From positions 1,058,957-1,122,956 of the forward strand of contig OZ242382.1 of NCBI GenBank assembly GCA_965209235.1: a DNA stretch of 64,000 bases, in the 5' to 3' direction. The DNA is from Gammaproteobacteria bacterium (GTDB lineage Bacteria > Pseudomonadota > Gammaproteobacteria > G965209235). The translations under genes were made by a program, and so were the position numbers. Below, piece after piece: positions 8,166-40,467 of this stretch. The notes under the pieces are model-generated. The model saw nothing but the letters and a program-made list of their open reading frames with translations, was not told where the DNA came from and made no database searches. Numbering within the stretch: position 1 is the first letter of the stretch; the number at the start of each line of letters is the position of its first letter.

Positions 8166-10025
8166 ATGGGGAGTTTGCAGTACCGCTCGGAAGTTGATGG
8201 ACTGAGAGCAGTCGCCGTTCTGCCGGTGATCTTCTTCCATGGAGGGTATGCGTGGTTTTCAGGCGGTTTCGTTGGGGTTGACGTGTTCTTTGTGATCAGT
8301 GGGTATCTGATCACGACCATCATCGTTCACGAACTTGATAAGGGGACGTTCAGCCTTCTGAACTTCTACGAACGTCGCGCGCGACGGATTTTGCCAGCGC
8401 TGTTCTTGATCATGGCGGTGTGCGTGCCATTTGGCTGGTTTTGGCTAGCACCCACCGATTTGCGAGACTTTGGGCAGAGCCTTGTCGCTGTCTCGACCTT
8501 CTCCTCCAACGTCTTGTTCTGGCATGAGAGCGATTATTTCGCTACCGATATCGATCTTAAGCCTCTCCTGCACACATGGAGTCTAGCAGTCGAAGAGCAG
8601 TATTACGTTCTTTTCCCGCTGTTCCTGGTCCTCACCTGGCGAATGGGCTTCACCCGGATCGCTGCCGCGCTATTGGCCGTCTTCATGGTTAGCTTGGCAC
8701 TCGCGCAATGGGGTGCGCATTACGCGCCGACTGCGAATTTCTATTTGTTGCCCACACGAGGATGGGAACTCCTGTTGGGTGTCTTGACGGCGCTCTTTCT
8801 CAGGCGTTCAGGTTTCATCCAGTCACGAGGGGTCAATCAATTGATGAGCCTCCTCGGGCTCGGCATGATCGTTTATGCGATCGCGGTTTTTGATTCAGAG
8901 ACTCTCACACCGGGACTTGTTGGGCTGCTGCCGACCGTCGGCACCGTGTTCATCATTCTGGGCGCGAGACCAGGAACCGTAGTGCATGCGCTGCTGTCGT
9001 TCAGACCGATGGTCGGAATCGGACTGATTTCGTACAGCGCCTATTTGTGGCATCAGCCTGTTCTCGCGTTTGCACGCTATCGCTCGTTGGAAGAGATTGG
9101 CGCCGGCGCGACACTTGGGTTAGTGATCCTGCCACTGGTGCTTGCCTACGGCAGCTGGCGGTGGATCGAAAAGCCATTTCGTAATCGCGAGAAAGTCAGC
9201 CGCCGCACCGTGGGCCTGAGTGCGGGGGCCGGGACACTGGCCTTCGTGCTGATTGGAGCAGCGTTGCATTTCACCGATGGTGGTCTCGCGCGGTTTGGCG
9301 AAGACGAACAGAGAGTGTTGACGTCGTTTTCCGATCTGAGTGAGGTGATCCCAGGAAAGATGCGTGACATTCGCTTGAGAGATTTCGACTCTGAGAGCGA
9401 CAGAAAGGTTTTACTGATCGGCGACAGCTTCGCTCAGGATATCGCGAATGTCATCTTTGCATCGCCGTTGATCAATGACATCTCTCTCTCAGGGTTTTAC
9501 CTTCACCAGCAATGTGGTGTGGTGATGAGCCGACTAGAAGATCAACCATTCACAGCCCCGATGTGTCGAGATCGCGCACACTCCTTTAACACTCCTAAGC
9601 TACTGGCGTTGATGGAGGAAGCCGACGAGGTTTGGCTGGCGTCAAGTTGGCGGATGTGGAAGGTGCCGCTCCTTCTAGACGCGATTGAACACTTCAAGAC
9701 GCAGGGTGCTGAGGTTGTCGTTTTTGGCAGAAAGAGCTTTGGGTACGTGACTGAAAGGGACTTTATGGACGGGGGCAAACGCGAGTGGACAAAACCCCGA
9801 GAGCTGCAACAGTTTCACATCGAGGTGAATGACGCGATGAAAGAGATCATCCCGCCCCATGCACGTTTTGTGGACGTCAGTCTGGCGGCATGTGGCGGTG
9901 TCACTCATTGCGTGAACTCCGATGGCTTCAATGTGTACTCTCACGACGGATGGCACCTGACGCCATACGGTGTGACGTACATGGCTGAGAAGCTGTTCCC
10001 AAGAGGCGAAGCAGACGCACGGTAG
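8166..10025 (+). CDS. OafA/YrhL-type O-acyltransferase (AT3 membrane domain + SGNH domain), copy 1
   Basis: 'DGLRAVAV..V.FFH', 'GFVGVDVFFVISGYLIT', 'HTWSLAVEEQYY'; SGNH motifs 'GDSFA' and 'DGWH'. Confidence 0.92.
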   Translation: MGSLQYRSEVDGLRAVAVLPVIFFHGGYAWFSGGFVGVDVFFVISGYLITTIIVHELDKGTFSLLNFYERRARRILPALFLIMAVCVPFGWFWLAPTDLRDFGQSLVAVSTFSSNVLFWHESDYFATDIDLKPLLHTWSLAVEEQYYVLFPLFLVLTWRMGFTRIAAALLAVFMVSLALAQWGAHYAPTANFYLLPTRGWELLLGVLTALFLRRSGFIQSRGVNQLMSLLGLGMIVYAIAVFDSETLTPGLVGLLPTVGTVFIILGARPGTVVHALLSFRPMVGIGLISYSAYLWHQPVLAFARYRSLEEIGAGATLGLVILPLVLAYGSWRWIEKPFRNREKVSRRTVGLSAGAGTLAFVLIGAALHFTDGGLARFGEDEQRVLTSFSDLSEVIPGKMRDIRLRDFDSESDRKVLLIGDSFAQDIANVIFASPLINDISLSGFYLHQQCGVVMSRLEDQPFTAPMCRDRAHSFNTPKLLALMEEADEVWLASSWRMWKVPLLLDAIEHFKTQGAEVVVFGRKSFGYVTERDFMDGGKREWTKPRELQQFHIEVNDAMKEIIPPHARFVDVSLAACGGVTHCVNSDGFNVYSHDGWHLTPYGVTYMAEKLFPRGEADAR

Positions 10026-10033
10026 ATTCCGTT

Positions 10034-10060
10034 TGTCAGCACTCGAACAGAGTGTTGACA
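10034..10060. terminator. Hairpin between convergent acyltransferase and MFS genes
   Basis: TGTCAGCACTC-GAACA-GAGTGTTGACA, an 11-bp stem with one G:U pair. Confidence 0.55.
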
Positions 10061-10196
10061 CAGGCGTTCTGATCGGAGTCCGAAACGCCATTTAGCATGA
10101 ACTGGTTGTCGCCTGTATCGCTCGTTCGCTTACGGTGCTGTCGCTGCGGTGCGTCTTGCAGGCAGTTGGTCGGTTTTGCCGCGCTTGACGCGCCGC

Positions 10197-11459
10197 TCAG
10201 GACCGCGCCGGCAGCGGTTTCGGGGCGCTGTAGCGCATCATGAACGTCAAACCGCAGCACACCCATAACAGCGAGGCGACAACGATCAACATCAACGTGT
10301 AGTTTCCCGTAGAAGCCAGCAAGATGCCGCCCACGGGTGCGCCAATCGCGCTGAAAGGCACGCTGTATAGGCGGCTTGCGCCAACCACGCGACCAAACTC
10401 TTCCGGGCGAAACAGTCGTCCCATGGCAAAGTTGAACAGCACGATCGCCATGCCATAACCGAGGCCGAACAACGGGAACACGATTTGCATCGTCGTGAAC
10501 ACCGGAGCCACAGCGATGGCGGTGATTGCGACGGCTTGAATCGCGCCGCAGACGAGGAACACACGGGCAGTTGACATGCGATCCAGCAGCCATCCCACAA
10601 CGACTTTTCCGCCCATGGCCAGTCCTGCCATGATGGCAGCCATGGTGCTCGCGGATTGCAACGTTGCGCCAGCCTCAAGGCCCATATTGACGGCATGAAT
10701 GAGGACGCAGTTGATCGAGAAGAACATGATTCCCGTGACCGTGATCATCAGCAAGAATTGCTTGTTTCTCATCAGAATGAGAATGGTTTCGCCGATGGCA
10801 GCAAAGACGCCTGCGTCGTTGGGTGCTTGAACGGTGTCGCCGGCTTCTTCGCCCACCGGTTCTGGCGCTTCGCCGTCGGGGTGTTGGCCAACCTTGGCAG
10901 GCTTATCAATCACAACGAGGTAAAACAGCGGGGCTGCCAGAATCGCAACGACGCCGTAGATCAGGGCCAGTGTTTGCCAGTCTCTCCAGCCAATAATCGC
11001 CGCACCGACAATCGGCATGACAAATCCCGACAGGGAGATGCCGACGGCTGCGATGCCAAGCGCGGTGCCTCGGCGTTTGACGTACCAGCGCGTGATGAGC
11101 AGGGCGGGCGCGAGACCGCCCAGCAAGGGAGCGCCCACAGCAAGGACCGTTCCTGAAATCAACCACCAATGCCAGATTTCGGTCATCTGGGTGACTGCCA
11201 GAAATCCGATTCCCAGAAGCGCCGATCCCAATGCAAAGACGGCACCGATGGGACGGGTATCAGCCAAGCGGCCGATGTACGGAGAGACCAGCGCACCCAC
11301 CACCTGGAAAATCGCCATGCCCCATGCGAATGAGGCTTTATCCGCGTCTGATTCTGGAATGGCGGTGAGCAGCAACGAGAACGAGTAGAAGTAGAGACCG
11401 GTTGCCAGGAAGTCAGCAGAAAAAGCCGCACCAATTGCGCGCGGTCCAGAAAAACGCAT
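10197..11459 (-). CDS. MFS transporter
   Basis: About 12 hydrophobic segments; MFS motif A-like 'GRLADTRPIG' and 'GWLLDRM'. Start is uncertain (11459 or 11531). Confidence 0.88.
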   Translation of the reverse strand: MRFSGPRAIGAAFSADFLATGLYFYSFSLLLTAIPESDADKASFAWGMAIFQVVGALVSPYIGRLADTRPIGAVFALGSALLGIGFLAVTQMTEIWHWWLISGTVLAVGAPLLGGLAPALLITRWYVKRRGTALGIAAVGISLSGFVMPIVGAAIIGWRDWQTLALIYGVVAILAAPLFYLVVIDKPAKVGQHPDGEAPEPVGEEAGDTVQAPNDAGVFAAIGETILILMRNKQFLLMITVTGIMFFSINCVLIHAVNMGLEAGATLQSASTMAAIMAGLAMGGKVVVGWLLDRMSTARVFLVCGAIQAVAITAIAVAPVFTTMQIVFPLFGLGYGMAIVLFNFAMGRLFRPEEFGRVVGASRLYSVPFSAIGAPVGGILLASTGNYTLMLIVVASLLWVCCGLTFMMRYSAPKPLPARS

Positions 11460-11799
11460 ACGGATTCCGAGAGAGGACTCCGAAGCGATGCTCGGAGGGG
11501 GAGAATGGGATTGTAGGTGTCTCGTCATCATGCCGGTGATACGCTTCGTACATCAACGAGACAGCGCATGCGGGGAGGTGGTCGAAGTCGCTGAATGACC
11601 TATGAAAACCGAATGATATTCTGGATCCAGTCTTGGCTCTGGGAGGCGATAGCGAGATAATCGCGGGATCGGGTGAATGACCTCGCTGGTCTCGTCAGTT
11701 CATCCCGGTGTCTCGCCTCGTCGCAGACAAGAGCGTGACGCTCTCATGGCCATATGCTGACTTGAAGGGTGGAGTGAAAGATGGGCGCGCGTACCTGAG

Positions 11800-13761
11800 A
11801 TGACAACGTATCGAAGAGAGATTGACGGCCTTCGGGCGGTCGCCGTCATTCCTGTGATTTTTTTCCACGCGGGATCTTCTCTTTTCAACGGTGGATTCGT
11901 TGGTGTCGATGTCTTTTTCGTGATAAGCGGTTATCTGATCACGAGCATCATCATCCAAGAGCTGAGCGAAGAGCGATTCTCTCTCGTCAATTTCTACGAG
12001 CGGCGTGTGCGGCGCATCTTGCCGGCTCTGTTTCTGGTGATGTTGGTTACCTTGCTATTTGCATGGCGGTTTTTGCTGCCGAGTGATGTTCCAGAGTTTT
12101 CCAAGAGCCTGATCGCGGTGCCCCTGTTCATAGCCAATTTTCACTTCATGGAAAACGACTATTTCGGCATCGCGAACGAACTCAAGCCCATGCTCCACAC
12201 ATGGAGCTTGGCCGTCGAGGAGCAGTTTTACGCCGTCATCCCGTTCTTGTTGCTTGTAACTTGGCGGTTTGGACTGCGTGCGGTTGCGGGTGTCGTGATC
12301 CTCTTGTTCATGTGCAGCCTTGTTGCCATGATATTCATTCTGCCGGTCAACCCTGATCTCACATTTTTTATGCTGCCGACCCGAGCTTGGGAACTGCTGC
12401 TTGGCAGTGCCATTGCCGTGTACTTCTTTTACCAGAACCCTGCCGCACGTGAAAACTGGATTGCGAGGAGTGGAGCGTGGATCGCTCAACTGGGAAGCGC
12501 TGCCGGCTTATCTCTGATTGCTTATTCGGTCTTTGTATTCAGTGAGGCAATGCCATTTCCCAGCGTGTACGCACTGATGCCGACGATCGGCACCGCACTG
12601 GTGATCATCTTTGCCTCTCCGCGTACTCTGGTCGGCCAGCTGCTTGGGAACAAGCTGTTGGTCGCAATGGGCCTTGGAAGCTACAGCGCATATCTGTGGC
12701 ACTTCCCCCTGTTCTCATTGATTCGGTATAGAGCGATCTCTGATGTCGATGCGGGGGTCTTGATGCTGTACAGCCTCCTGATCATTCCACTGTCGTACCT
12801 CAGTTGGCGGTTTATAGAAACGCCGTTTCGCAACAGACATCAAGTGAGTAGGCGTGTGGTTTTCGGGATGTCCGCAGCGTCCGCTCTAGTGTTGATCGGA
12901 TTCGGTGTGATCGGCGCCCAATCAGATGGCATCGTGGGCCGGCCGCATGTCACACAGCAACTCCTCGAGATCGAGCGCAATCTCTTGCCGAATGTTGGAT
13001 TGCGTGATAACTGTCAACCTGTGTTCAGTCGCCTATCTTGCGTGACAGGCGATCAGCCCAGAGTTATGGTTTGGGGAGACTCGCAGGCAGCCAGTCTCGT
13101 GCATGGCATGCTGACATCGCATCCCGACTTGCAGGTGGTGCAGGCGACGACCAGCAGCTGCGGGCCAGTCTTTGAAATTGCGGTTTTTGCGGAAAGAAAG
13201 AAAAGAGCGCAAGCGCAGTACTGCCTGAGACAAAACGATGCGGTGCGGCGGCATTTGGAGGAGACCACCTCCATTCAGTACGTGGTGTTGGCCGGGGCGT
13301 ACAGCGAGTTCTTCTCTGATGACTACCGGCTGGTCGATCGTGAAGACAACCTTATTGAAACTAGATCGCACCGAGAGGTGAGCCGGTACTTCGTACACAC
13401 AGTTCAATCTTTGGAGCGCCTCGGGAAGACCGTGATTGTGTTTTCCGAGTTGCCGACTTCGGGCGAAGACGTGGCGCGTTGCCATCTTAATTCGGTGCTT
13501 TCTGGAGCGGACAAATCGCGTTGTGACTTCCCAGAGAGCGTCTATCGATCGAGATCCAACGGAGTACTCAAGATGCTTGAAGCGGTGACCGCGGAGACCA
13601 ACGCGACGGTGATTGACCTCGCTGCTTTGATGTGTACAAACGGCACCTGCTCTGTTGAGAAACACGGCGTGCCGATGTACCGGGATGAGAATCACCTCTC
13701 GAAAGATGGCAGTGCGTTCGTCATGAGGGAGATCGATTTTGGGCGGCTCATTTCGGAATAG
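11800..13761 (+). CDS. OafA-type AT3-SGNH O-acyltransferase, copy 2
   Basis: 'YRREIDGLRAVAV', 'HTWSLAVEEQFY'; SGNH motifs 'WGDSQA' and 'DENH'. Confidence 0.92.
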   Translation: MTTYRREIDGLRAVAVIPVIFFHAGSSLFNGGFVGVDVFFVISGYLITSIIIQELSEERFSLVNFYERRVRRILPALFLVMLVTLLFAWRFLLPSDVPEFSKSLIAVPLFIANFHFMENDYFGIANELKPMLHTWSLAVEEQFYAVIPFLLLVTWRFGLRAVAGVVILLFMCSLVAMIFILPVNPDLTFFMLPTRAWELLLGSAIAVYFFYQNPAARENWIARSGAWIAQLGSAAGLSLIAYSVFVFSEAMPFPSVYALMPTIGTALVIIFASPRTLVGQLLGNKLLVAMGLGSYSAYLWHFPLFSLIRYRAISDVDAGVLMLYSLLIIPLSYLSWRFIETPFRNRHQVSRRVVFGMSAASALVLIGFGVIGAQSDGIVGRPHVTQQLLEIERNLLPNVGLRDNCQPVFSRLSCVTGDQPRVMVWGDSQAASLVHGMLTSHPDLQVVQATTSSCGPVFEIAVFAERKKRAQAQYCLRQNDAVRRHLEETTSIQYVVLAGAYSEFFSDDYRLVDREDNLIETRSHREVSRYFVHTVQSLERLGKTVIVFSELPTSGEDVARCHLNSVLSGADKSRCDFPESVYRSRSNGVLKMLEAVTAETNATVIDLAALMCTNGTCSVEKHGVPMYRDENHLSKDGSAFVMREIDFGRLISE

Positions 13762-14123
13762 CCGCATGTCACACCTCAACTCTCATCCGCAATCCGCGAT
13801 GTACGCGAGGATGAGGGACTGTCCTTTATGCGGAGGTGTTTTGTATCTCGCAGCCCTTGATTGAGTGGTGGAGCCATCGCAAGGGCGGGTGAGAAACGCT
13901 TTCTCGCTTACGGAAGGCGTAAGACGTACTGCGCCGGATAGTAGGATAATTGCTAGGTCGCGAAAATGACATTGCGGGCTTTATCTGCTCGTCAAGCACT
14001 CTGACTTGATTCGAGGCAAGGACCGGCACGTTCACCGCAATGTACCGACAGGATTGGCCACTGTTGCATTGTTTGCGGTGGCGACTGAAGGGTTAATCAA
14101 GAGAGAAGCGAAGCGTATCTAAG

Positions 14124-16064
14124 ATGACAACATATCGTAGAGAAATCGATGGGCTTCGGGCAGTCGCGGTGATTCCCGTGATCCTGTTTCATGCAGGGTC
14201 ATATCGGTTCAATGGGGGCTTCGTCGGCGTCGATGTCTTTTTCGTGATCAGCGGATATCTGATCACGAACATCATCATCAATGAACTCAGCCAAGAACGG
14301 TTTTCACTCGTCAATTTTTATGAGCGGCGCGTGCGCCGCATATTGCCGGCTCTCTTCTTTGTGATGTTGGTCAGCCTGCCGTTTGCATGGCTATTTCTGC
14401 TGCCCGGCGATCTTCCTGGCTTTGCCCAAAGCGTGATGGCAGTACCGCTCTTCATCGCCAATTTCCACTTCATGGAGAACAACTACTTCAGTATTGCCAG
14501 CGAGCTGAGGCCCATGCTCCATACGTGGAGCTTGGCGGTCGAGGAGCAGTTCTATGCGGTCGTGCCCATACTGCTCCTTGTGACATGGCGTTACGGGCTG
14601 CGTGTCACCGCAAGTGTGGTGGCTGCGTTGTTCGCAGGTAGCTTCATTGCCATGCTGATACTACAGCCGGAATATCCTGAGTTCACGTTTTTTATGCTTC
14701 CGACCCGAGCTTGGGAACTGCTGGTTGGTAGTGCTATTGCCATGTACTTTTTCAAAAAGGACATTACGAAACACGGAGTCTGGAGCGCTCAGCTGGGTAG
14801 CATCGCCGGCTTGTTTTTGATCACCTATTCAGTGTTCGCTTTCAGCGACGGCATGCCGTTTCCGAGTGCAAACGCGCTGATACCGACCATTGGGACGGCG
14901 CTGGTGATTGTCTTTGCGGCGCCCAGTAATCTCGTCGGTCAGCTCCTGGGAAGTAAGTTGTTTGTCACGATCGGCTTGGGAAGTTACAGCGCGTACTTGT
15001 GGCACTTTCCTTTGTTCTCGTTGATTCGACACCGAGCTATCGAGGATGTCGAGACGGTGACGATGGTGTTATTTGGTCTTCTGATCATTCCACTGTCGTA
15101 CCTCAGTTGGCGGTTTGTCGAGACGCCGTTTCGCAACAAAAAGCGATTCAGCAGACGCGTTGTTTTTGGGATGTCCGGTGCATGTGCCATGGCATTGATT
15201 GGATTGGGTGCTGTCGGTGCTCAGTCGGATGGCATCTTAGGGCGGCCGCATGTTACGAAGCAACTTCTAGAGGTAGAGCGCAATCTCGAGCCAAACGTTG
15301 GTCTCCGAGGTAACTGTGAACCGGTGTTGACACGTTTTTCTTGCAAGACGGGCGCCCAGCCGACGGCGATGGTTTGGGGTGACTCTCAAGCAGCATCTCT
15401 CGTGCATGGAATTGTGGCATCGCACCGTGATGTGCAGATCGTTCAGGCAACAACCAATGGGTGCGGACCCGTTTTTGGTGTTGCGGCGTTCAAAGGCCGA
15501 CCTGATAGCACGAGAGTGAAGGAATGCCTAGAGCAAGGTGATGCGGTGCAACGGTACTTGGAGGAGACCGCATCCATCCAGTATGTGATTTTGGCTGGGA
15601 CGTACCGAGTGTTTTTTGAGAGTGGTTACCGTCTGGTGGACCGGGACAACGCTGTTGTTGACATTACATCTCACCGTGAGGCAACCCCTCACTTTGTGAG
15701 CACCGTTCAGTACTTAGAGCAGCTTGGAAAGAAAGTGATCGTGTTTTCCAGTTTGCCAACGTCGGGAGAAAATGTCGCGCGGTGCCGCGTGAAGTCCGTG
15801 TTCTTTCAGGTGCCTGAATCGCATTGCGACATCCCGGAGAAGGCGTATCGTGCGCGTTTCGCAGGAACCTTTCAGATGCTTGCTGCTGTTGCAGCCGATA
15901 CCAATGCGGAGGTCATCGATCTCTCATCGGTCATGTGCTCAAACGGTGTGTGTTCGACGGAAAAACAGGGAGTACTGCTGTATCAGGATGACAATCACCT
16001 CTCGAAAGATGGCAGTGCGTTCGTCATGAGGGAGATCAATTTTGGGCGGCTCATTTCCCCGTAG
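14124..16064 (+). CDS. OafA-type AT3-SGNH O-acyltransferase, copy 3 (close paralog of copy 2)
   Basis: Same motifs ('WGDSQA', 'DDNH'); collinear with copy 2 from MTTYRREIDG to the C-terminus. Confidence 0.92.
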   Translation: MTTYRREIDGLRAVAVIPVILFHAGSYRFNGGFVGVDVFFVISGYLITNIIINELSQERFSLVNFYERRVRRILPALFFVMLVSLPFAWLFLLPGDLPGFAQSVMAVPLFIANFHFMENNYFSIASELRPMLHTWSLAVEEQFYAVVPILLLVTWRYGLRVTASVVAALFAGSFIAMLILQPEYPEFTFFMLPTRAWELLVGSAIAMYFFKKDITKHGVWSAQLGSIAGLFLITYSVFAFSDGMPFPSANALIPTIGTALVIVFAAPSNLVGQLLGSKLFVTIGLGSYSAYLWHFPLFSLIRHRAIEDVETVTMVLFGLLIIPLSYLSWRFVETPFRNKKRFSRRVVFGMSGACAMALIGLGAVGAQSDGILGRPHVTKQLLEVERNLEPNVGLRGNCEPVLTRFSCKTGAQPTAMVWGDSQAASLVHGIVASHRDVQIVQATTNGCGPVFGVAAFKGRPDSTRVKECLEQGDAVQRYLEETASIQYVILAGTYRVFFESGYRLVDRDNAVVDITSHREATPHFVSTVQYLEQLGKKVIVFSSLPTSGENVARCRVKSVFFQVPESHCDIPEKAYRARFAGTFQMLAAVAADTNAEVIDLSSVMCSNGVCSTEKQGVLLYQDDNHLSKDGSAFVMREINFGRLISP

Positions 16065-16466
16065 CCCCGTTGCCAAGCATCAGCTGTCGAAAACGTTCAG
16101 GCATCTTCATGGGCAGACAAGCACGTGCTCGTTTGTGTGCGATTCGCTGCTTGGAAGGCATGCGCTCGCGACAACGCTGAGGAAGCTGGGACAGTCCGCC
16201 GCAGCGGTCCTCAAGGGGATCTCACATCTTCGCGAAGAGATAAAGACAGTGCGTACCCTTCATCTGATTGCCTGCTCTCACGCCACATATGCCGTGCCTC
16301 CGTCAGATACTTGGATAGTCGCTCGGCTGAGGATCTGGTAGGCTTCATCTGCTCATCTGGCGGTTTGGCTTGGTTCGGCAAGGGCCGATGCCTTTATGGC
16401 CTACACCGACCGGATCCGTCTATAGCATGACGGGTATTGCAGGATGAGCTGAGAGAGTAGCGACGT

Positions 16467-16560
16467 GTACCTAAGAGGACAACCTATCGACGGGCTTTGT
16501 GGAGTTGCAGTGATTCCGGTGATCTTGCCTAAGGCAGTGCCTTCGTCTTCAACCAACTTG
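16467..16560 (+). pseudogene. 5' relic of a further OafA-type acyltransferase copy
   Basis: 'gtacctaagAGGACAACctATCGACGGGctttgtggagttgcagtgattccggtgatc' aligns with the starts of copies 2 and 3 ('gtatctaagATGACAAC...atcgatgggcttcgggcagtcgcggtgattcccgtgatc') and reads IDGLCGVAVIPVIL. Confidence 0.75.
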
Positions 16561-16743
16561 GCCCTTTGCTGCTGTGTTTGCACAAAGAGTGAGGATGAGC
16601 ATCATGTTTGAACGACAGCCGTTCGGCTTGAGCCGAGACCCCCGGGCGAGGGGCTTATAGATTGATTGCGCCAACTTCCCGTTGGTAATTTTCGTGGTAA
16701 CAAGTAGGGTATTACAATTGGCAAAGCAAGTGACGGCCATGCT

Positions 16744-18216
16744 ATGAGATTCGTCGGCGAGTCTCTCACATTTGACGATGTCTTGCTTCGTCCGGGTCCG
16801 TCGCAGATTGGCCCCAGTGAAGCCAACTTGCGAAGTGAAATCGCTGGAATGGGCGTTGCTCTTCCATTCGTGTCATCCGCGATGGACACCGTCACCGAGC
16901 GCGACATGGCGATTGCCATGGCCGAGGCTGGCGGCCTTGGGGTGATCCATAAGGCGTTAGATCGCGTGCTTCAAATCAAACAAGTGAAAGCTGTTAAGCG
17001 GCGCGGCGCCGGTGTACTGCGATCCCCCACCACCATTGATTACCGAGCGTCTGTCGGTGAAGCGCGAGAACTGACTCGCGATTCAGGGTATTCCGGGGTG
17101 CCAGTCGTTGAAGGGCGGACGTTGGTGGGCATTGTGACTCATCGTGATCTGCGGTTACCTATTGAGAATTCGGCACCCATCACCAGTGTGATGACCAAAC
17201 GGGATAACCTGGTCACGGTGTCAGAAGGCCAGTTTCGAGACTCACAAGCCTTGATGATTGAGGCCGAACGGCTGATGAACACCAATCGCATTGAGAAGGT
17301 GCTCATCGTCGGGAAAGACAATCATCTGACGGGGATGGTCACCCTGCGCGATATCAAGAACGTCAACACTTGGCCGAATGCCACGCGCGATGCGCAAGGT
17401 AGGCTCATGGTGGCTGCTGCTATTGGAGTTGGTGCGTCCGCCATTGAGCACGCCCAAGAACTACACGCCGCCGGGGTTGATGCCGTGGTCGTGGATAGCG
17501 CCCACGGCCATGCTCAGGCTGTGGTTGACACTGTTAGGCAGCTGTGCTCTGAGACTCGGCTGCGCGTGATTGCGGGCAACGTGGCCACGGCTGATGGTGC
17601 CAAAGCACTGGCAGATGCTGGCGCGTCTTGCGTGAAGGTGGGAATCGGTCCAGGATCGATCTGTACTACACGTATCGTGACAGGTGTCGGTGTTCCGCAG
17701 CTTACGGCGGTGATTGAAGTTGTGAACGCCTTGAAGGGATCAGGTGTGAGCGTGATTTCAGACGGTGGAATTCGAGCCAGTGGTGATGTCGTGAAGGCAC
17801 TCGCTGCAGGCGCGAGCGCGGTCATGTTGGGTAGTGCGCTCGCCGGCACTGATGAAGCCCCCGGCGAGACGATCATTCTCGACGGGCGTAGCTGGAAGGC
17901 GTATCGCGGCATGGGATCCCTTGGAGCCATGAGCTCGCGGCGAGAAGCGGCAGAGCGGTACTTTCAAGGTGACGCTGAAGTGTCGAAGTTAGTGCCTGAA
18001 GGCGTCGAAGGCAGAGTTCCTTACCGTGGCCCCGTGAGGGCCGTGTTGGACCAGTTGTCTGGCGGATTACGTTCAGGGATGGGATATGTCGGTGCGGGCA
18101 CCTTAGAGGATCTGCATGATAAAGCAGAATTTGTGAGGGTCACACCGATGTCCATGCAGGAGAGCCACGTTCACAGCGTTCGGGTGACGCGCGAAGCTCC
18201 TAACTACGATGGCTGA
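16744..18216 (+). CDS. guaB: IMP dehydrogenase
   Basis: 'LTFDDVLL', CBS pair, '[14 protein letters not shown]' with catalytic Cys, 'YRGMGS', 'PEGVEG'. Confidence 0.97.
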
Positions 18217-19756
18217 ACACCCTATCAGTCACATTGCGGTTCTTGATTTTGGATCCCAAGTCGCTGCTCTCATCGCACGTCGATTGCGTGAGCGTGGGAT
18301 AGATTCGAGGGTATATCCGAGTACGGTCGACGCGAGCACATTGTGCGAAAGTCAGCCATCTGGTGTCATCCTTTCTGGCGGCCCCGAGAACGTCGCCAAG
18401 CGGCATCATGACTATCCTGCGGTACTGGATGAGATGGATGTTCCGGTACTTGGGATCTGTTACGGAATGCAACTGCTGTGCCAGCATTTTGGTGGGAAGG
18501 TCTCCACCCGGATCGGCCAGTTCGGCAAGACAACCGTGCACGTGATTGACCACGATTGCGCGGTGTTGAAAGGCAACGGTGTTGGTAACGACTTTGTCGC
18601 ATGGATGAGTCACGGCGATGAAGTTGACCAGCTTCCAGATGGGTGGACAGTGGCGGCTGAGAGTGAGACGCATCCTCATGTGGCTGTGTCATCCGCCGAC
18701 GGCCGACGCATCGGATTGCAGTTTCACCCCGAGGTCTCGCATACCGTTGGAGGCACGGACATGTTGGAGCGTTTTGCTCGGCAGACGTGCGGTATGGCAG
18801 GAAGTACCGAGACAAGCGATCGACTGGACATCGCCATCCGAAATGTGCAGGAACTGATCGGTGATGAAGAGGCTGTCATTGGCCTGTCTGGTGGCGTGGA
18901 CTCCGCGGTGGCCACTGCCATCTGCGTGAAAGCTGGAGTGCGGGTCCATCCGGTGGCTGTGGATACGGGACTATTGCGGCAAGATGAGCTTGCGCTGATT
19001 CGTGGTGCCACTCGCGCCATGGGCGTCAAACTGGATGTGTTGGATGCATCAAAGGCCTTTTTTGCGGCGCTGCATGGGGTGAGTGACCCTGAGACGAAGC
19101 GCAAGATCATTGGTCGGCTGTTTGTGGAAACATTTCAAGAGTGGGCGCGTCAGCGCCAGCCCAAGCCGGCATTTCTTGTGCAAGGCACGATTTACTCCGA
19201 TGTGATCGAGTCAGCAGGTGATGGGCACGGCAGTCACAGCATCAAGTCGCACCACAATGTTGGTGGACTGCCGGAAGAGATGGAACTACGGCTATGCGAG
19301 CCGTTACGTAAGTTATTCAAGGATGAAGTCAGGGATGTTGGGCGGTTGCTCGGGTTGCCTGAGGAATTGCTGATGCGTCATCCATTTCCCGGACCAGGCC
19401 TCGCTGTCCGATTGCCAGGTGAAGTGACCAAGGAGCGAGCCGATACGTTGAGACAGGCTGACGCCATTTTTATGGAGGAACTGTATGCCTCGGGGTGGCA
19501 TCAGAAGGTGGCACAAGCTTTTGCTGTCTTATTGCCGGTCAAATCAGTAGCGGTGAAGGGTGATGCGCGGCTGTACGGTCAGGTTGTGTCGCTAAGGGCG
19601 GTGGTGACCGATGATTTTATGACGGCCAGTTGGGCTCAGCTACCACATGATCTATTGAGTCGCGTTGCGCGCAGAATCGGGAATGAGTGCGTCACTGTGT
19701 CAAGAGTCTTGTACGACATCTCCGATAAGCCACCGGCCACCGTTGAGTGGGAGTAG
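18209..19756 (+). CDS. guaA: GMP synthase (glutamine-hydrolyzing)
   Basis: 'LDFGSQ', 'LGICYGMQ', 'QFHPEV', 'SGGVDS', 'IKSHHNVGG', 'KPPATVEWE'. Confidence 0.97.
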   Translation: MAEHPISHIAVLDFGSQVAALIARRLRERGIDSRVYPSTVDASTLCESQPSGVILSGGPENVAKRHHDYPAVLDEMDVPVLGICYGMQLLCQHFGGKVSTRIGQFGKTTVHVIDHDCAVLKGNGVGNDFVAWMSHGDEVDQLPDGWTVAAESETHPHVAVSSADGRRIGLQFHPEVSHTVGGTDMLERFARQTCGMAGSTETSDRLDIAIRNVQELIGDEEAVIGLSGGVDSAVATAICVKAGVRVHPVAVDTGLLRQDELALIRGATRAMGVKLDVLDASKAFFAALHGVSDPETKRKIIGRLFVETFQEWARQRQPKPAFLVQGTIYSDVIESAGDGHGSHSIKSHHNVGGLPEEMELRLCEPLRKLFKDEVRDVGRLLGLPEELLMRHPFPGPGLAVRLPGEVTKERADTLRQADAIFMEELYASGWHQKVAQAFAVLLPVKSVAVKGDARLYGQVVSLRAVVTDDFMTASWAQLPHDLLSRVARRIGNECVTVSRVLYDISDKPPATVEWE

Positions 19757-19882
19757 TGACATGGGCTGTGAACCCCTTATAAACTAGGTTTACCGACTGT
19801 AACCTTCTGCAGATACTGCTGTTCAGCGGTCTCACAAAGCATCTCAGCTTTGCAACCTCAAGACAACGTGCCACTCGATCGT

Positions 19883-20500
19883 TCACAACGTACCGCGGTG
19901 AGCGGCATTGTTAGAGCGGCGGCAAGAATGAGAATGTTGGGCACTCGCGGTATGTTGCGAGAACGCTCCGATGGTCGTCAAGCACAGAAAGACGACCGCG
20001 TCTCGCTCAACTGCGCATACATGGTCAACGGATAGATGTAGTTCCAAAAAAGTAATAAGCGCGAGAGATGTGGTGGATAGAGTGATATACAAGAACGATA
20101 ACTTGCTTGTACGAAAGACAAAGCAGTCTTTGCTCCGATACTGTGCGATCGCAACAATTACGAAAACAATGAGTGCCAACCAAGACGGCCTAGGCAAAGC
20201 AGATCAGTGAATAGATTGACGTAGTCCCGTAGAAAGAGACTGATCCTCTGAAAGTAAGCGCGAAATAGAGAATACGAATATACACCTAGAAGATGCTGAA
20301 CAACGCAGTATCAAATATCATTGTGTTAGGCAACGACCCGGTTTGGATGAGTGTAAGGTGGCTGGCAGATATAATGGTTGTCGTTGCGCCCTCGCCAATC
20401 TATTGATGTGCAATTCCGGTTCGATTTGGCGCAGAGAGATAAGAGAGCGCATACAACAATGACAGAAGCAAAGCAAAACGGACGCGCGGATGCGCTCCAG
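19883..20500 (-). pseudogene. Possible decayed membrane-protein gene
   Basis: The minus strand gives hydrophobic peptide stretches (e.g. RFALLLSLLYALSYLS, MIFDTALFSIF*VYIRILYFAL, WLALIVFVIVAIA) interrupted by in-frame TAG stops and a frameshift. No family was recognised. Confidence 0.3.
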
Positions 20501-20629
20501 GACGTGAGATATTGTTCGGATAATTTGATCTTACAGATGGTATGTTGAAACGCTTACCCACAGAAAGGAGAAGCTAGATGAAGAGTCATCTGAAACGTCG
20601 AATTAACTATAAATCATAGGACTATTAAT

Positions 20630-22567
20630 GTGAAATATCGCGCGGAAATTGATGGCTTGAGGGCGCTTGCTGTTGTGCCAGTGATACTATTCCACGCTGG
20701 ATTTGAGCTATTCAGTGGAGGCTTTGTTGGCGTCGATGTTTTCTTCGTTATTAGCGGCTATCTGATCACGACAATCCTTATCGATGACATAGAAAAGGAA
20801 CGTTTTAGTATCGTTAGCTTCTATGAGCGACGTGCGCGACGAATACTACCTGCACTATTTTTTGTCATGCTTGTCTGCGTGCCTTTCGCGTGGATTTGGA
20901 TGTTCCCCAGCCAGATGAAAGACTTTTCAACGAGCCTGGTTGCTGTCAGCTTGTTCGTGTCTAACATCTCGTTTTGGCAGGAAAGTGGTTACTTCAATCC
21001 TGCTGTTGATGCAAAGCCTTTGCTACATACTTGGAGTTTGGCCGTCGAGGAGCAATACTACGTGCTATTTCCTATCTTTCTTACGATGGCTTGGCGTTTC
21101 GGAAAGAGTAGAGTATTTTGGATGATTGTTGCTATGGGTGGCATCAGTCTCCTGTTAAGCGAATGGGGATGGCGAAATAAGTCGATTGCCAACTTCTATC
21201 TTGCACCGACACGAGCCTGGGAGTTGTTGGCTGGTTCAATAACAGCATTCATCGTGCAACACAAGGGTGTGAGGAAGAGTGACATATTAGCTCTTGTAGG
21301 CTTGGGTGCAATCGCATTTTCCATTCTTGCTTATGATAAACACACACCGTTCCCAAGTGTGTACGGCCTGGTTCCAGTTCTGGGTGTGGTACTGCTTGTT
21401 CTCTACGCTCACAAAGATACGCTGGTCGCCAAAATCCTTGGGTCAAAGGCGTTCGTTGGTGTTGGGCTGATCAGCTACTCTGCTTATCTATGGCATCAGC
21501 CGTTGTTTGCGTTTGCCCGGTTAAGAATGCATGAACCCGGAATGCTCACATTCATTTTGCTGAGTATCGCATCATTGCTACTGGCGATTGTTTCCTGGAA
21601 GTACGTGGAACGTCCGTTCAGGCGCAAGGACGGCTTGTTGTCCAGTAGGTCGCTAGTGTTCTACAGTTCAATTGCCGCGGTGGTGGCGTTTTCAGCGATT
21701 GGACTCATGGGTCGCATAAGCAATGGTTTTGAGAACGCGACAGAAGGTCGAAAACGTTTGGCAGATCTAGCAGCGCAGATAGAACCCAATCCAGGAATTA
21801 AATGGACATGTGCTGGATCGTTTGTCATCTCTGATGGCTGCTCTTCGGGCGATGGGCCCACTCTTCTGCTGTGGGGTGACAGTTTTGCAATGCATCTTTA
21901 CGAAGGTTTGAGGGCTAGCGCTCCTTCTTTGGGAATTATGCAAATTACGACAAATAGTTGTTCACCCATCCTCGGCATCTCAAGATTAAATCCATCCGGC
22001 GGAAATGGGTTGTCGTGGTCTAACCGATGCTTAGCATTTAATCAAGGAGCTTTCGAATGGTTAAAACGAAACAAAACTATTGATCTTGTTGTGATCTCGT
22101 CTCCATTTGGATGGGTTGGAACAGAAAGAACAATCAACTCCGATGGTGATGTTCTGGATCCGGATTTTGAGGTTGCACTTAGTGGCTTGTCACGAACAGT
22201 AAGGGCGATTGAGAATCTCGGAATTGAGGTAGTTGTTGTTTCAGCGTCACCAAAAAGCGGATTTGATGTGGGTCAATGTCTTATAAGAAGATATCAATTC
22301 AACTTGCGCGCTGGATGTGATTTTGAGTACGTTGAGTCAAGTTACAGGCATGATTTCTTTAGCGCTGTGGAGCAGAGTGTGCCGGTATACTGGCTTTACA
22401 AAGATCTTTGCACAGATGGCGTGTGTGAGGCAGAGAAAGGTAGTGTATTTATCTACAACGATGCTGTGCATTTAAGCAAGCAAGGCAGTGCTCTCATAGG
22501 TGCGTCGAACAATTGGTACGAGAGACTAAGAGAGTTAACGCTCAAAAGCAAGTTGCCGCAGAATTAG
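20630..22567 (+). CDS. OafA-type AT3-SGNH O-acyltransferase, copy 4 (AT-richer)
   Basis: 'KYRAEIDGLRALAV', 'HTWSLAVEEQYY'; SGNH motifs 'WGDSFA' and 'DAVH'. Codon usage is visibly more A/T-rich than copies 1-3. Confidence 0.92.
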   Translation: MKYRAEIDGLRALAVVPVILFHAGFELFSGGFVGVDVFFVISGYLITTILIDDIEKERFSIVSFYERRARRILPALFFVMLVCVPFAWIWMFPSQMKDFSTSLVAVSLFVSNISFWQESGYFNPAVDAKPLLHTWSLAVEEQYYVLFPIFLTMAWRFGKSRVFWMIVAMGGISLLLSEWGWRNKSIANFYLAPTRAWELLAGSITAFIVQHKGVRKSDILALVGLGAIAFSILAYDKHTPFPSVYGLVPVLGVVLLVLYAHKDTLVAKILGSKAFVGVGLISYSAYLWHQPLFAFARLRMHEPGMLTFILLSIASLLLAIVSWKYVERPFRRKDGLLSSRSLVFYSSIAAVVAFSAIGLMGRISNGFENATEGRKRLADLAAQIEPNPGIKWTCAGSFVISDGCSSGDGPTLLLWGDSFAMHLYEGLRASAPSLGIMQITTNSCSPILGISRLNPSGGNGLSWSNRCLAFNQGAFEWLKRNKTIDLVVISSPFGWVGTERTINSDGDVLDPDFEVALSGLSRTVRAIENLGIEVVVVSASPKSGFDVGQCLIRRYQFNLRAGCDFEYVESSYRHDFFSAVEQSVPVYWLYKDLCTDGVCEAEKGSVFIYNDAVHLSKQGSALIGASNNWYERLRELTLKSKLPQN

Positions 22568-23065
22568 GAAAGATGACTCAGCTCCTGACGTAAGAACGGG
22601 CTTTATCAACCTGATAGTGAGAGGCTATTGAAGATACTCTTCCGACACAAAGCATGCAACGTAACGGCTTGACAGAAACGGTGATAGAGAAAAGGAATGT
22701 TGCAGTTTCTCTCGTTTACCAACGGACGGCATACCTTTGTTTGACCGCTATTCCTCTAAGTATTTGTAGGTAACAGTTGGGTTGTCTGCTCCGCTAATCG
22801 AAGTTACCACTGGAAGGATGTAGTTGTAGTTTTTGGTGTTGAATGATACGTAAAAGCAACCACAGAAAATGTAGGATCTCTATTTGTAACACCAGCGTTC
22901 TATGAGAAATTGACAGCGATTCCTTACAGAACTTGCAGTGTGATGAAAAAGAATGTTTGATGCTGTCGACGCTGACCAGCAGTTGTTGTGTAACCAGTCT
23001 TAAGAATGATGTATAAAAATTATACGGCTAGATAATGGGAACCGTCCATAAAATGGCAGGTTGAA

Positions 23066-23698
23066 TCAATTGGATGCGGTTCTTAGTGTCTGTATAGCAT
23101 TCCCAAGCCTTTGAGTGTGAAATATGGCAGTTAAGGTTCCTTTGTTGTACGGCGTAGTTTGGGCCACGAGTGTATCGTGATTCAACAGTGAGTCGACGAA
23201 TCCAGAGACGTCACCATGGAGAAAAGTTGCTTGGCCATCTGTAGACAAGGACCAATGTCTCTCAACGGCTACTTCCTTGCCGACTCTTGTGGTAACCTTC
23301 GCTTCTCTTCTAAGATAGCTCCACCACACGATGATTAAATCGAGTTCGTTACGCTTACATCTTATGCTGAGAAATGGACTGCGGTTTAGCAAAGTATTAT
23401 TTTTAGATTCTGCGGGCAAACTTAAAATAACCAGTGCTGAGTCATCGATAAGGTCAGTTTCGACACTAACCCCCCATTTACCGAGTTCGTCAATCTGTGA
23501 TGCAACAACCTCATTTTCTTGGAGTGACAAAGTTCTCGCCGGAGCGTCGAAACATTGAATCTTCTGATCCGTGTCTTTGAGGGAAGAACAGGCCAGAAAT
23601 TCCGCATCAGAAATGGCTGCAAAACTGACTTCTACGGTTAGCATACAGGGTAGAATAATGAGGATCTCACGAATTATGATTAGCGTTGGTGACTTCAT
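23066..23698 (-). CDS. Exported protein resembling the TagO/VasI (T6SS-associated) family; possibly degenerating
   Basis: Signal-like N-terminus, then 'C....D..K.QCFD', 'GKW.V....D.IDDS..V.LSLPA', 'IRCK.NE', 'W..STD.QATF', 'LVAQ.TPY....TAIF'. This pattern was recalled for the family, not searched. Confidence 0.6.
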   Translation of the reverse strand: MKSPTLIIIREILIILPCMLTVEVSFAAISDAEFLACSSLKDTDQKIQCFDAPARTLSLQENEVVASQIDELGKWGVSVETDLIDDSALVILSLPAESKNNTLLNRSPFLSIRCKRNELDLIIVWWSYLRREAKVTTRVGKEVAVERHWSLSTDGQATFLHGDVSGFVDSLLNHDTLVAQTTPYNKGTLTAIFHTQRLGNAIQTLRTASN

Positions 23699-23916
23699 GA
23701 GAGGAGATCAGCCGTGAGGTAATTGTGATCTGCATTCCACTAACTTTCTTATTGCAAATGTTCGTGTAACCCTCGAGTGTGACTGTGTTGCGCAGGAATG
23801 ACTTCAGCTTATCTAAGTTTGTTCAGGGATTTGAAGCTTTACTTTGCTGAAGGCGTAGACCACAATTGATGGGGCTGTGATTTGGATATATCTAATAGGC
23901 GCCAACTAATGTCGTT

Positions 23917-24753
23917 TCAATACCAACCTCGTAGCCCGAGCAACACGGTGGTTTCATAGCTGTTAGTGTCGAACTCAAGGTTATCCAGATTTTGTGCGGG
24001 AAGTACGAGAGCGTGACGTATTCCCACATAAGGCGCAAATCGTGGCGTCACCTCGTAACGTAGGCGCATTCCAGCCTCTAGTTGAGTGATTCCGCGGATA
24101 ACGTCCTGCTCTTCTACGGCTTGGAGGGAGAGGTTGATTTCAGCCCGGAACTGCAGTATCAGTTGTTTTGAGTACGTCCACTCGTATTCAATCTCCGCTC
24201 TGCCAAACACGTCACCTCGGTGGCTGACGAACACCGCGACATCCACTTCCCACCAGTATGGCGCTAACCCGTGCACGCCAAACACGGCATAAGCGGTTCC
24301 GCGCGGTGAGACATCTTGGCGGTATCCCAGTTGAATGTCCCAATACGGTGAGATGGCGTGACTCCATAGCGCCTGAAGCTCCCCGTCTTCTAGCTCATCA
24401 GTGTCAAGATCGTACTCGCCTTCTGTTTTCCACAGGAACTTGTTGATGTCGCCTCCAACCCAACCTGAGGCATCCCACACGAACTCCGTACCGTCGTAAC
24501 CGCGAATCTCCGTGCGCTCAAACACGCTCAACCACCCCAGTGCAGATCCGTGGTGGTGTTGAAGTTGCTCGCGAGCGCGTCTCATCTCTTCGGGGTCATA
24601 GTGTTCGTCGGCCTGAGACCATGGTGGCTCGGCATCGGTGTCTTGACTATGAGCATGCTCGTCATCCGCTGCAGTAGCAACTGCCGGCAAGAGGGCGAGA
24701 GTGAGAAGCCATAGAACTGAGCGCGCGGCAATGGCTTGCATGAGCTCAGGCAC
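23917..24753 (-). CDS. copB: Copper resistance protein B (outer membrane)
   Basis: 'WDASGWVGGD.NK.LWKTEGE', 'LWSHAISPYWD.QLG.RQD', 'GLAPYWWEVD', terminal 'GLRGWY'. Confidence 0.92.
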   Translation of the reverse strand: MPELMQAIAARSVLWLLTLALLPAVATAADDEHAHSQDTDAEPPWSQADEHYDPEEMRRAREQLQHHHGSALGWLSVFERTEIRGYDGTEFVWDASGWVGGDINKFLWKTEGEYDLDTDELEDGELQALWSHAISPYWDIQLGYRQDVSPRGTAYAVFGVHGLAPYWWEVDVAVFVSHRGDVFGRAEIEYEWTYSKQLILQFRAEINLSLQAVEEQDVIRGITQLEAGMRLRYEVTPRFAPYVGIRHALVLPAQNLDNLEFDTNSYETTVLLGLRGWY

Positions 24754-26395
24754 TCGTGGGTTTGATGGAAACGACTTGCATCATCCCTGCAATCATGTGC
24801 ATTAACAAATGGCAGTGAAACGCCCAGTCTCCAATCGCATCGGCGGAAATGTCCACAGCGAGTTTTTCGCCAGGCTTCACAATGACGGTGTGTTTATGCG
24901 GCTTGTGGCTTCCGCCGCCGTTACACAGCTCAAAGAACATCCCATGCAAGTGGATGGGGTGACTCATCATGGTGTTGTTCACGAGCGTCATCCGGACTCT
25001 CTCGCCGTGATGTAACGCAATGGGCTCCGTTACTTCAGAAAAACGCACCCCGTTAAACGACCACATGTAGCGTTCCATGTTGCTGGTCAGGTGGACCTCA
25101 AGTTCCCGTGATGGCTCACGTTGGTCAGGATTGGGGTTCACGCTACGAAGTTGCGTGTATGTCAACACGCGGTGGTTCATGTCTTCAAGCCCAATCCCTG
25201 GTTCGTGGAGCCGGCTTTCAGGCGCCGTCGCGACATTGACCACTCCGGGGCCAATGACGATCCCCTTGGCGTTCTTGCGGCCGGCCGCGTGCCCGTGATG
25301 TGCGTGATGACCTGTGCCATGTCCCATGTCTCGCATGGTGAGAGTCGGCACTGGCCGCATCTGAGGCACCGTGGCAAGCGAGTCGACGGTCGGACCCAAC
25401 GTGGCGACCACTTGCCCGGAACGCTCAATGGCTTCAGCTACGAGCGCGTACGGCTTGGCAGTCGGCGGTTCGACCACCACGTCATAGGTTTCGGCGACGC
25501 CAATCTGAAACTCATCCGTCTCGACCGGCTGCACGTTTTGACCGTCTGACTGCACAACCGTCATTGGGAGACCAGGGATCCGAAAGTTAAAGATCGTCAT
25601 GGCTGAGGCGTTGATGATGCGTAGTCGCACGCGTTCCCCGACGTTGAAGATCGCATTCCATCCATCCTCAGTCGCGTGGCCATTGATCAGAAACCGATAG
25701 TCATTGCCGGCGATATCTGAGATATCTCGGGGTGACATCCGCATCTGACCCCACATAGTCATGTCAGGTAGTTCGCCGGCCAATCCTTGACCCACGGTGG
25801 CCGGCACCGAGTTGAATGCTTCCGGCATGCCTTTAAGCTGGCGGTACACCCGGTAGGGGTCTGCAAACATCCAGTCGGAGAGGACCAGCACGTACTCGCG
25901 ATCAGCCGTAATCGGATCGACACCGGCCGGATCAATAATCAGCGGTCCGTAGTGCCCAAGCTGTTCTTGCAGCCCGGAATGGGAGTGATACCAATAGGTT
26001 CCTGTTTGCTTGGCCTGAAACCGATAGGTAAACGTCTCATCGGGCGCAATTCCTGGAAATGAGACGCCAGGCACACCGTCCATGTAAAACGGAAGCAACA
26101 AGCCGTGCCAATGGATGGACGTGTCTTCGTCAAGCCGATTGGTGACTCGGATTTCAATGTCATCGCCTTCTGTCATGCGTAGCAACGGCGCGGGCAACAT
26201 GCCGTTGATCCCGATCGCCGCGCCCCGGCGCCCACCGATTGTGACTGGGAAGCGATCAATCGCCAGATCAAACCCTGTGTGGGCGGCTTGTCTGCGGCCG
26301 ACATTCCCCATCGATGATGACAGGGACCAACTTGGCATCATGCCAAGAGCTGTCGCTCCCAGCGCGGTTGCGAGGAAAGATCGTCTCGAAGTCAT
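24746..26395 (-). CDS. copA: CopA-family multicopper oxidase (Tat-exported)
   Basis: Tat signal 'SRRSFL'; Cu-binding motifs HWHG, WYHSH, HPIHLHG, HCHLLMHM; His-rich linker. Confidence 0.95.
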   Translation of the reverse strand: MTSRRSFLATALGATALGMMPSWSLSSSMGNVGRRQAAHTGFDLAIDRFPVTIGGRRGAAIGINGMLPAPLLRMTEGDDIEIRVTNRLDEDTSIHWHGLLLPFYMDGVPGVSFPGIAPDETFTYRFQAKQTGTYWYHSHSGLQEQLGHYGPLIIDPAGVDPITADREYVLVLSDWMFADPYRVYRQLKGMPEAFNSVPATVGQGLAGELPDMTMWGQMRMSPRDISDIAGNDYRFLINGHATEDGWNAIFNVGERVRLRIINASAMTIFNFRIPGLPMTVVQSDGQNVQPVETDEFQIGVAETYDVVVEPPTAKPYALVAEAIERSGQVVATLGPTVDSLATVPQMRPVPTLTMRDMGHGTGHHAHHGHAAGRKNAKGIVIGPGVVNVATAPESRLHEPGIGLEDMNHRVLTYTQLRSVNPNPDQREPSRELEVHLTSNMERYMWSFNGVRFSEVTEPIALHHGERVRMTLVNNTMMSHPIHLHGMFFELCNGGGSHKPHKHTVIVKPGEKLAVDISADAIGDWAFHCHLLMHMIAGMMQVVSIKPTSA

Positions 26396-26644
26396 GGTTG
26401 CCTCCCCACATCTCATGCCGAATCTGTGATGTCAGCGTTGTTGAACCTCATCTCGCGCCGATTTTGACCCCATTTCAGCGCGATCGTTCCCTCGTGTCGC
26501 GCGCGCCGGCGTGACCTGCTTGGCGTCTGAGGTGATGCGATCGGGCACCTTATGCTGACACATCACATTTCCTGTCATCCGTCTCGCTGATATAAAATCA
26601 CCGACCGACTGAAGAATGAGTGCATCATTTCGCATCGACCCGTC

Positions 26645-40457: not shown

Positions 40458-40467
40458 CGGCACCCAT

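Follow-up and report, generated by a model that had tools for sequence, protein, structure and literature searches.

How did a genome of 1.47 Mb come to hold four genes for acyltransferases of the AT3-SGNH type within 14.4 kb, and what could these enzymes do there? The question is raised by a stretch of 64,000 nucleotides, hereafter the window, which covers positions 1058957-1122956 of the single-contig genome of a member of the Gammaproteobacteria (assembly GCA_965209235.1, contig OZ242382.1), with 56.7% guanine plus cytosine (GC) and a contamination estimate of 0.07%. O-acylation of surface sugars alters the recognition of cells by phages, antibodies and lysozyme-like enzymes. An initial annotation of the window had read the genes as a local expansion. 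In our analysis, the locus is likely to be a collection of four AT3-SGNH genes from three lineages that lie to either side of guaBA, of which one, AT4, was probably acquired horizontally.

The four AT3-SGNH genes and their lineages

All four genes are on the plus strand: AT1 at 8166-10025 (619 amino acids), AT2 at 11800-13761 (653), AT3c at 14124-16064 (646) and AT4 at 20630-22567 (645, with a GTG start). Every one of the encoded proteins matches Acyl_transf_3 (PF01757) with 101-119 bits (cut-off 31) and carries a fused SGNH domain (PF19040, cut-off 27), which scores 48.8 bits in AT1, the protein with a short divergent SGNH subtype, and 148, 151 and 114 bits in AT2, AT3c and AT4, respectively. 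In the four-way alignment the motifs DGLRA, FFVISG, HTWSLAVEEQ, GDS and DxxH are invariant. The Pfam searches and this alignment agree with the initial annotation, which had listed four intact plus-strand genes with these motifs and assigned them to the OafA type. The family assignment (OafA/OafB/OatA type) is secure, and the four genes are further members of a well-described enzyme type. Family searches and tblastn detected no further AT3 or PF19040 gene elsewhere in the 1.47-Mb genome.

Between lineages the AT3 domains are 49-56% identical and the SGNH domains 16-31%, which bears out the strong divergence of the SGNH domains seen earlier; between AT2 and AT3c the values are 76% and 62%. Over their full length the three in-genome lineages share 37-42% identity, and proteins from other organisms come closer. 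AT4 has outside relatives with 65% full-length identity, against 39-42% to the other copies of this genome; outside homologs of AT1 are about 50% identical over the full length, the short odd SGNH type included, and those of AT2 reach about 45%. In a maximum-likelihood tree of 70 sequences, AT1 and AT4 fell in separate clades, each with a support of 100, and AT2 and AT3c were sisters on a long stem (branch length 1.0-1.24) inside a third group. The same three-clade placement was recovered in a tree of 157 sequences and in separate trees of the AT3 domain and of the SGNH domain, and approximately unbiased (AU) tests rejected the grouping of all four in one clade, with p 3.7e-4 for AT3 and p ~1e-60 for SGNH. 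Separate trees of the two domains had been suggested as a check of the local expansion, and both speak against a single one. What stands of that claim is the in situ tandem duplication that gave AT2, AT3c and a relic; a common local origin of these with AT1 and AT4 does not. The AT1 and AT2 types would be long-term residents; they combine a native composition (the GC content at third codon positions, GC3, is 0.64 in AT1) with long branches.

The tandem array consists of unit 1 (11789-14112, plus strand, 2324 nt), which holds AT2, unit 2 (14113-16451, plus strand, 2339 nt), which holds AT3c, and the first ~75 nt of a third unit. The segment 11789-13754 is 72% identical in nucleotides to 14113-16057 (blastn), and AT2 and AT3c share 70% of their amino acids. 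The relic, mentioned earlier with no coordinates, was placed at 16452-16527 on the plus strand by blastn, alignment and profile. It starts exactly one period (2339 nt) past the start of unit 2, is 71% identical to 14100-14186 (blastn, E 2.6e-7 within the region) and, in the alignment, covers 24 nt upstream and the first ~17 codons of AT2/AT3c, with AGG in place of ATG and a loss of 11 nt. A six-frame family profile search of positions 1-30000 gave it as the sole additional match (E 0.013). The near-equal lengths of the units and the spacing of the relic point to a three-unit tandem array of which most of the last unit was deleted. Judged from the sequence, tandem amplification appears to have brought the AT2 type to a minimum of three units of 2.33 kb, the third of which decayed to a stub. 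The synonymous divergence of the pair (dS 1.2-1.3), being above 1, indicates an old duplication. The ratio of non-synonymous to synonymous divergence (dN/dS) is 0.14-0.17 overall, ~0.1 in the AT3 half and ~0.2 in the SGNH half; these values indicate purifying selection on both copies since the duplication and, for the SGNH half, relaxed or shifted constraint and not positive diversifying selection. The earlier description of the locus as a diversifying repertoire finds no support here, since purifying selection acts on AT2 and AT3c, its sole true duplicate pair.

AT4 lies in a low-GC island (19900-23950, 43-50% GC against 56.7% for the genome) between guaA and copB, one of only 11 genome regions below 48% GC, and its GC3 is 0.47 versus 0.59-0.70 in neighbouring genes. 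At the columns conserved in at least 85% of the family, AT4 shows no departure, AT1 shows 7 and AT2/AT3c 11-12. GuaA and GuaB of this genome are ~50% (44-57%) identical to other proteobacterial versions, and the genome as a whole appears to be fast-evolving; the lack of departures in AT4 fits a short residence in such a genome. The island was probably acquired horizontally, and AT4 looks like the latest-acquired copy, a recent import. Homologs of its AT3 half are encoded by Pseudomonas and Salmonella phages, under the annotation of O-antigen acetylase, and many plasmids carry such homologs as well; the AT3-SGNH family is clearly mobile. The ten other regions below 48% GC, such as C1:394001-398501, 405001-410001 and 1172501-1182501, may hold imported genes too.

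The AT genes are not contiguous, as guaB, guaA and, between AT1 and AT2, a minus-strand gene for a transporter of the major facilitator superfamily (MFS; 10197-11531, PF07690 match) are interleaved with them. The MFS gene has weak NCBIfam matches to lactate and oxalate/formate families, all below cut-off, and it is probably a bystander. The island with AT4 also holds a minus-strand open reading frame (ORF) of 210 amino acids (23066-23698) whose N-terminus, judged by eye, is hydrophobic and signal-peptide-like; in Pfam it matches only VasI, a type VI secretion protein, and this below threshold (23.6 bits, cut-off 26.5), and no NCBIfam match was found. The copper-resistance pair copB (23917-24753) and copA, a multicopper oxidase gene (24746-26416), both on the minus strand, adjoins the island. 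A scan for sigma-70 promoters returned 12 matches versus 11.2 expected, which is chance level, and the terminator scan gave nothing usable. As for phase-variation signals, there were no notable tandem or simple-sequence repeats and no GATC clusters, only a T7 run inside AT2.

The position downstream of guaA

Between the relic and AT4 lie guaB (IMP dehydrogenase, 16744-18216) and guaA (GMP synthase, 18209-19756), two conserved housekeeping genes on the plus strand, both with Pfam matches. Among the AT1 relatives whose surroundings are known, the nearest, locus L082, stands directly after guaB...guaA. We screened 164 fetched AT3-SGNH loci, ~124 of them with enough upstream flank, and in 11 of these ~124 guaA ends 28-654 nt before the start of the acyltransferase gene, on the same strand. 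The hosts of the 11 are Shewanella, Alteromonadaceae, Cellvibrionaceae, a metagenome-assembled genome (MAG) of Enterobacterales, Hydrogenophaga, Methylophilaceae, two alphaproteobacteria and a Desulfuromonadales MAG, and the 11 genes are scattered over the 157-sequence protein tree (10 changes for 11 labels) without clustering. The evenly drawn sample of the class described below gave a similar picture: an AT3-SGNH gene follows guaB-guaA directly in 5 of 50 family-positive genomes (G120, G154, G200, G266 and G334), with gaps of ~135-680 nt, all verified on the DNA. The gene of G334 is of the AT1 type and 50% identical over the full length. In all, the guaA-linked loci are L002, L005, L013, L082, L096, L103, L115, L128, L132, L142, L145 and L165-L169. 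By our own rough estimate, chance would give such a linkage roughly once in a few thousand per gene. In the seven other loci checked, no integrase gene was found beside the guaA-linked genes, and the following genes were heterogeneous; a literature search for a guaA/acyltransferase association returned nothing relevant.

The simplest reading of this regularity is a recurrent landing or replacement site beside a highly conserved operon, and co-transcription, anchor-mediated recombination or decayed islands may be its causes. AT4 would be a recent horizontal arrival in the slot just 3' of guaA. An island of a site-specific recombinase at the 3' end of guaA was considered and rejected, as neither an integrase-sized ORF nor a convincing direct (att) repeat of the guaA 3' end was found in 19000-24200.

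The regularity could also be given a wider meaning. The position 3' of guaBA would then be an undescribed slot for swappable AT3-SGNH genes of surface-glycan acylation, shared widely among Alpha-, Beta- and Gammaproteobacteria and Desulfuromonadales, a one-gene "serotype" locus with recombination anchored in gua; this genome would be an extreme case of it, and AT2 and AT3c, having lost a loop Ser, may use a modified transfer. Taken as a whole, we hold this proposal only tentatively, and rather doubt it.

Predicted catalysis and acceptors

While the domain content, motifs, fold, copy number, phylogeny, composition and synteny of these genes are shown by the data, their acyl donor, acceptor, expression and biological role are inferred, and the mechanism follows the OafA/OafB model. 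The 10-helix AT3 domain would draw on acyl-coenzyme A in the cytoplasm and bring its acyl group, most likely an acetyl, across the inner membrane, and the Ser-Asp-His triad of the SGNH domain would pass this group on to a sugar in an envelope glycan. Salmonella enterica OafA and OafB have the same two domains, 11 predicted transmembrane helices (TMH) and a periplasmic SGNH domain (PMC7448272, PMC9833829). The likeness to OafA extends to R-X10-H, GG-F-xGV-D, FFxISG, RxxR and the Glu after TMH10 at nearly equal residue numbers, and, in common with both proteins, the window's enzymes have a Ser/Asp/His triad in GDS and DxxH as well as conserved periplasmic Cys pairs.

In OafA/OafB, O-antigen acetylation is abolished or strongly reduced by the loss of R14 or H25 in TMH1, G34, F35, D39, R69 or R72 (RxxR), S112 in the TMH3-4 loop, E325 after TMH10, or the SGNH triad S412/D587/H590 (PMC7448272, PMC9833829). 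All the OafA-essential residues are kept at matching positions in the four AT proteins, except Ser112 in AT2 and AT3c; AT1 has every one of them at nearly the same numbering. In AT1 numbering, R14, H25, F41-G46 and R70/71-R73/74 are invariant in the four and at least 98% conserved in 271 homologs; the fused-type-specific residues G33 G34 F35 V36 G37 V38 D39 and E335 are invariant in the four, as are the residues of the SGNH triad, G419 D420 S421 and D594/H597.

An AlphaFold model, made for AT1 only, has 11 TM helices and an alpha/beta domain (pLDDT 87.3, pTM 0.83), and this domain matches GDSL/SGNH esterases in Foldseek with a probability of 1.00 and target-normalised TM-scores of 0.44-0.58. 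Searches of PDB sequences with AT1, AT2 and AT4 as single sequences gave nothing at E<=0.01; only profiles, those of the AT1 and AT2 clades, reached a best solved relative, the SGNH domain of OafB (6SE1; E 7e-4 and 1.4e-3, respectively). The sequence similarity to 6SE1 is remote (E ~1e-3, by profiles only), and this genome has three SGNH/linker subtypes. In contrast to OafA/OafB, no prophage or gtr context was seen around the window's copies.

Two other groups of enzymes invite comparison. The AT3 domain of O-antigen acetylases from phages (Pseudomonas phage PAJU2 and YA3-like phages, Salmonella P22-like phages) is 43-44% identical to that of AT4, and such acetylases are a mobile, single-gene, serotype-modifying cargo; however, the match is limited to the AT3 part (residues 1-419), and no phage genes lie near the copies in the window. 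The staphylococcal and streptococcal OatA likewise fuses the two domains and works by the same relay in two steps, but it is a Gram-positive enzyme that acts on N-acetylmuramic acid, with no detectable sequence match in the PDB searches.

The main departure from the OafA model concerns Ser112. This position is Ser in AT1 (S114) and AT4 (S111) and Ala112 in both AT2 (codon at 12133-12135) and AT3c (codon at 14457-14459); 261 of 271 homologs (96%) have Ser in this column, six natural homologs have Ala, and all 30 outside members of the AT2/AT3c clade have Ser. In OafA, S112A abolishes activity (PMC7448272). AT2 and AT3c further depart from 42 of the 220 columns conserved in their own clade, mostly before the duplication, and at H432S they replace a His that is otherwise clade-invariant and stands three residues after the Ser of GDS. 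One may ask whether the pair is still formed by ordinary acetyltransferases, or whether it has a changed donor, another transfer route, or an esterase-only or regulatory function. The lost Ser, H432S and the long shared stem would be in keeping with such a change. On the other hand, both copies have been kept under purifying selection after the duplication, no change is seen in the catalytic triad, R-X10-H, RxxR and E325, the same Ala exists in six natural homologs, and the genome evolves fast overall. A functional change of this order seems to us unlikely; AT2 and AT3c are probably active, since they were kept by selection, possibly with an altered hand-over step.

As regards the acceptor, the structured linker (SGNHext) tunes acceptor specificity in OafA/OafB (PMC7448272). 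The three unrelated linker-plus-SGNH types of this genome most likely correspond to acceptor sugars or positions that differ: there would be at least three acceptor sites, and AT2 and AT3c may split a fourth. The acceptor itself would most likely be lipopolysaccharide or lipooligosaccharide, or another undecaprenyl-linked surface polysaccharide. A surface polysaccharide is favoured by the relationship to OafB, by the phage annotations and by the context of L081, a relative of AT4 (58% identical) that lies amid polysaccharide genes (GT2, GT4, UDP-glucose dehydrogenase, DegT, Bac_transf and CapD-type).

The enzymes might also act elsewhere, on peptidoglycan as OatA does, on osmoregulated periplasmic glucans or on a secreted glycoconjugate. 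Many acceptors are known for the family (review PMC9558356), the neighbours of the genes are housekeeping genes and not a glycan cluster, and the sole NCBIfam match, far below threshold, is to mycobacterial SucT. Nevertheless, the best solved relative is an O-antigen enzyme, the phage homologs are annotated as O-antigen acetylases and the L081 relative belongs to a polysaccharide cluster; moreover, peptidoglycan O-acetylation in Gram-negative bacteria is attributed to PatA/PatB and not to AT3-SGNH proteins (PMC12148441). We give such other acceptors about one chance in a handful, and retain a surface polysaccharide as the most likely target.

The initial annotation had gone further and proposed that the AT enzymes may decorate the glycan made by an array of GT25 genes, which is indeed present at 36709-43883. 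The ~14 kb between AT4 and this array are filled by unrelated genes (copAB, NAD kinase, a Bat/MoxR operon, a nucleotidyltransferase gene and pyrD), and no GT25 gene was found in the flanks of 172 other AT3-SGNH loci. The proposal is not borne out by any measurement; a link between the AT genes and GT25 is possible.

Copy number and the alternative origins

To place the locus among its class-mates, PF19040 genes were counted in a class sample of 400 genomes, drawn evenly. They are absent in 349 of the 400; most of the others have one, three have three and one has four. The copy number is unusual, and the per-megabase density of AT3-SGNH genes in this genome is the highest among 401. The other four-copy genome, G065, has 2.0 Mb and carries three of its copies within 55 kb (C1:90121-145768, L170-L172) and the fourth at C16:34268; they are 34-38% identical to the AT proteins of the window. 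Adjacent AT3-SGNH pairs were seen in L008/L153, L160 and L062. Clustered sets are rare but not unique, and those in Zhongshania (L008/L153), Novosphingobium (L160), L062 and G065 stand side by side, as mixtures of tandem duplicates and unrelated subfamilies. What sets the present locus apart from them is the arrangement of four copies and a relic around guaBA, in 14.4 kb of a 1.47-Mb genome.

Several observations weigh against a gathering of three lineages with an imported AT4. No marker of a transfer route was found for the AT4 island: in 19000-24200 there is no tRNA gene, no convincing direct or att-like repeat and no integrase-sized ORF, as only AT4 and the exported-protein ORF are long. 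All of the 60 nearest sampled relatives are related at class level only, and without close relatives the gene gains cannot be dated or polarised. The AT genes lie outside any glycan cluster; the sole match to a WaaL/Wzy_C-like O-antigen ligase (PF04932) in the genome is sub-threshold (18 bits) and uninformative. Finally, Ala112 and the departures of AT2 and AT3c from their clade columns suggest that the activity of this pair may be altered.

A very different history would be that a single ancestral gene expanded in place to four or five copies, whose SGNH halves then diverged under selection by phages or a host. All the copies share one strand and fit into 14.4 kb, genuine tandem duplication produced AT2, AT3c and the relic, and the SGNH halves are much more diverged than the AT3 halves, as such a history would have it. 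Against it, AT1, AT4 and the AT2 type each have closer relatives outside (50%, 65% and 45%) than in the other lineages here, the three clades are fully supported and the AU tests reject monophyly in both domains; the composition of AT4 is foreign, and the one true duplicate pair has a dN/dS of 0.1-0.2. We rejected a single expansion of all four genes on these grounds and consider it very improbable. Scarcely more credible, and if anything less, is that the AT4 island is an artefact of assembly or binning and not part of the chromosome: the GC content falls sharply over 4 kb and the closest relatives of AT4 come from other marine taxa, but the island lies inside the single 1.47-Mb contig between guaA and copB, ten similar islands exist elsewhere in this genome, the contamination estimate is very low and a position 3' of guaA is typical for AT3-SGNH genes.

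With three lineages gathered around guaBA as the likely origin of the locus, only the copy density, the Ser112-to-Ala pair and the guaA regularity go beyond the routine for this family. The practical value of the locus is modest. The guaA-linked placement provides a simple and testable rule for finding variable glycan-modifying genes. The Ser112-to-Ala pair, which is under purifying selection, could serve as a natural test of the proposed hand-over step from AT3 to SGNH. The three natural SGNH/linker subtypes on a near-identical AT3 chassis would be useful for the study of acceptor specificity. As for the organism itself, the retention of four such enzymes in a very small genome is evidently an investment in the variety of its surface.

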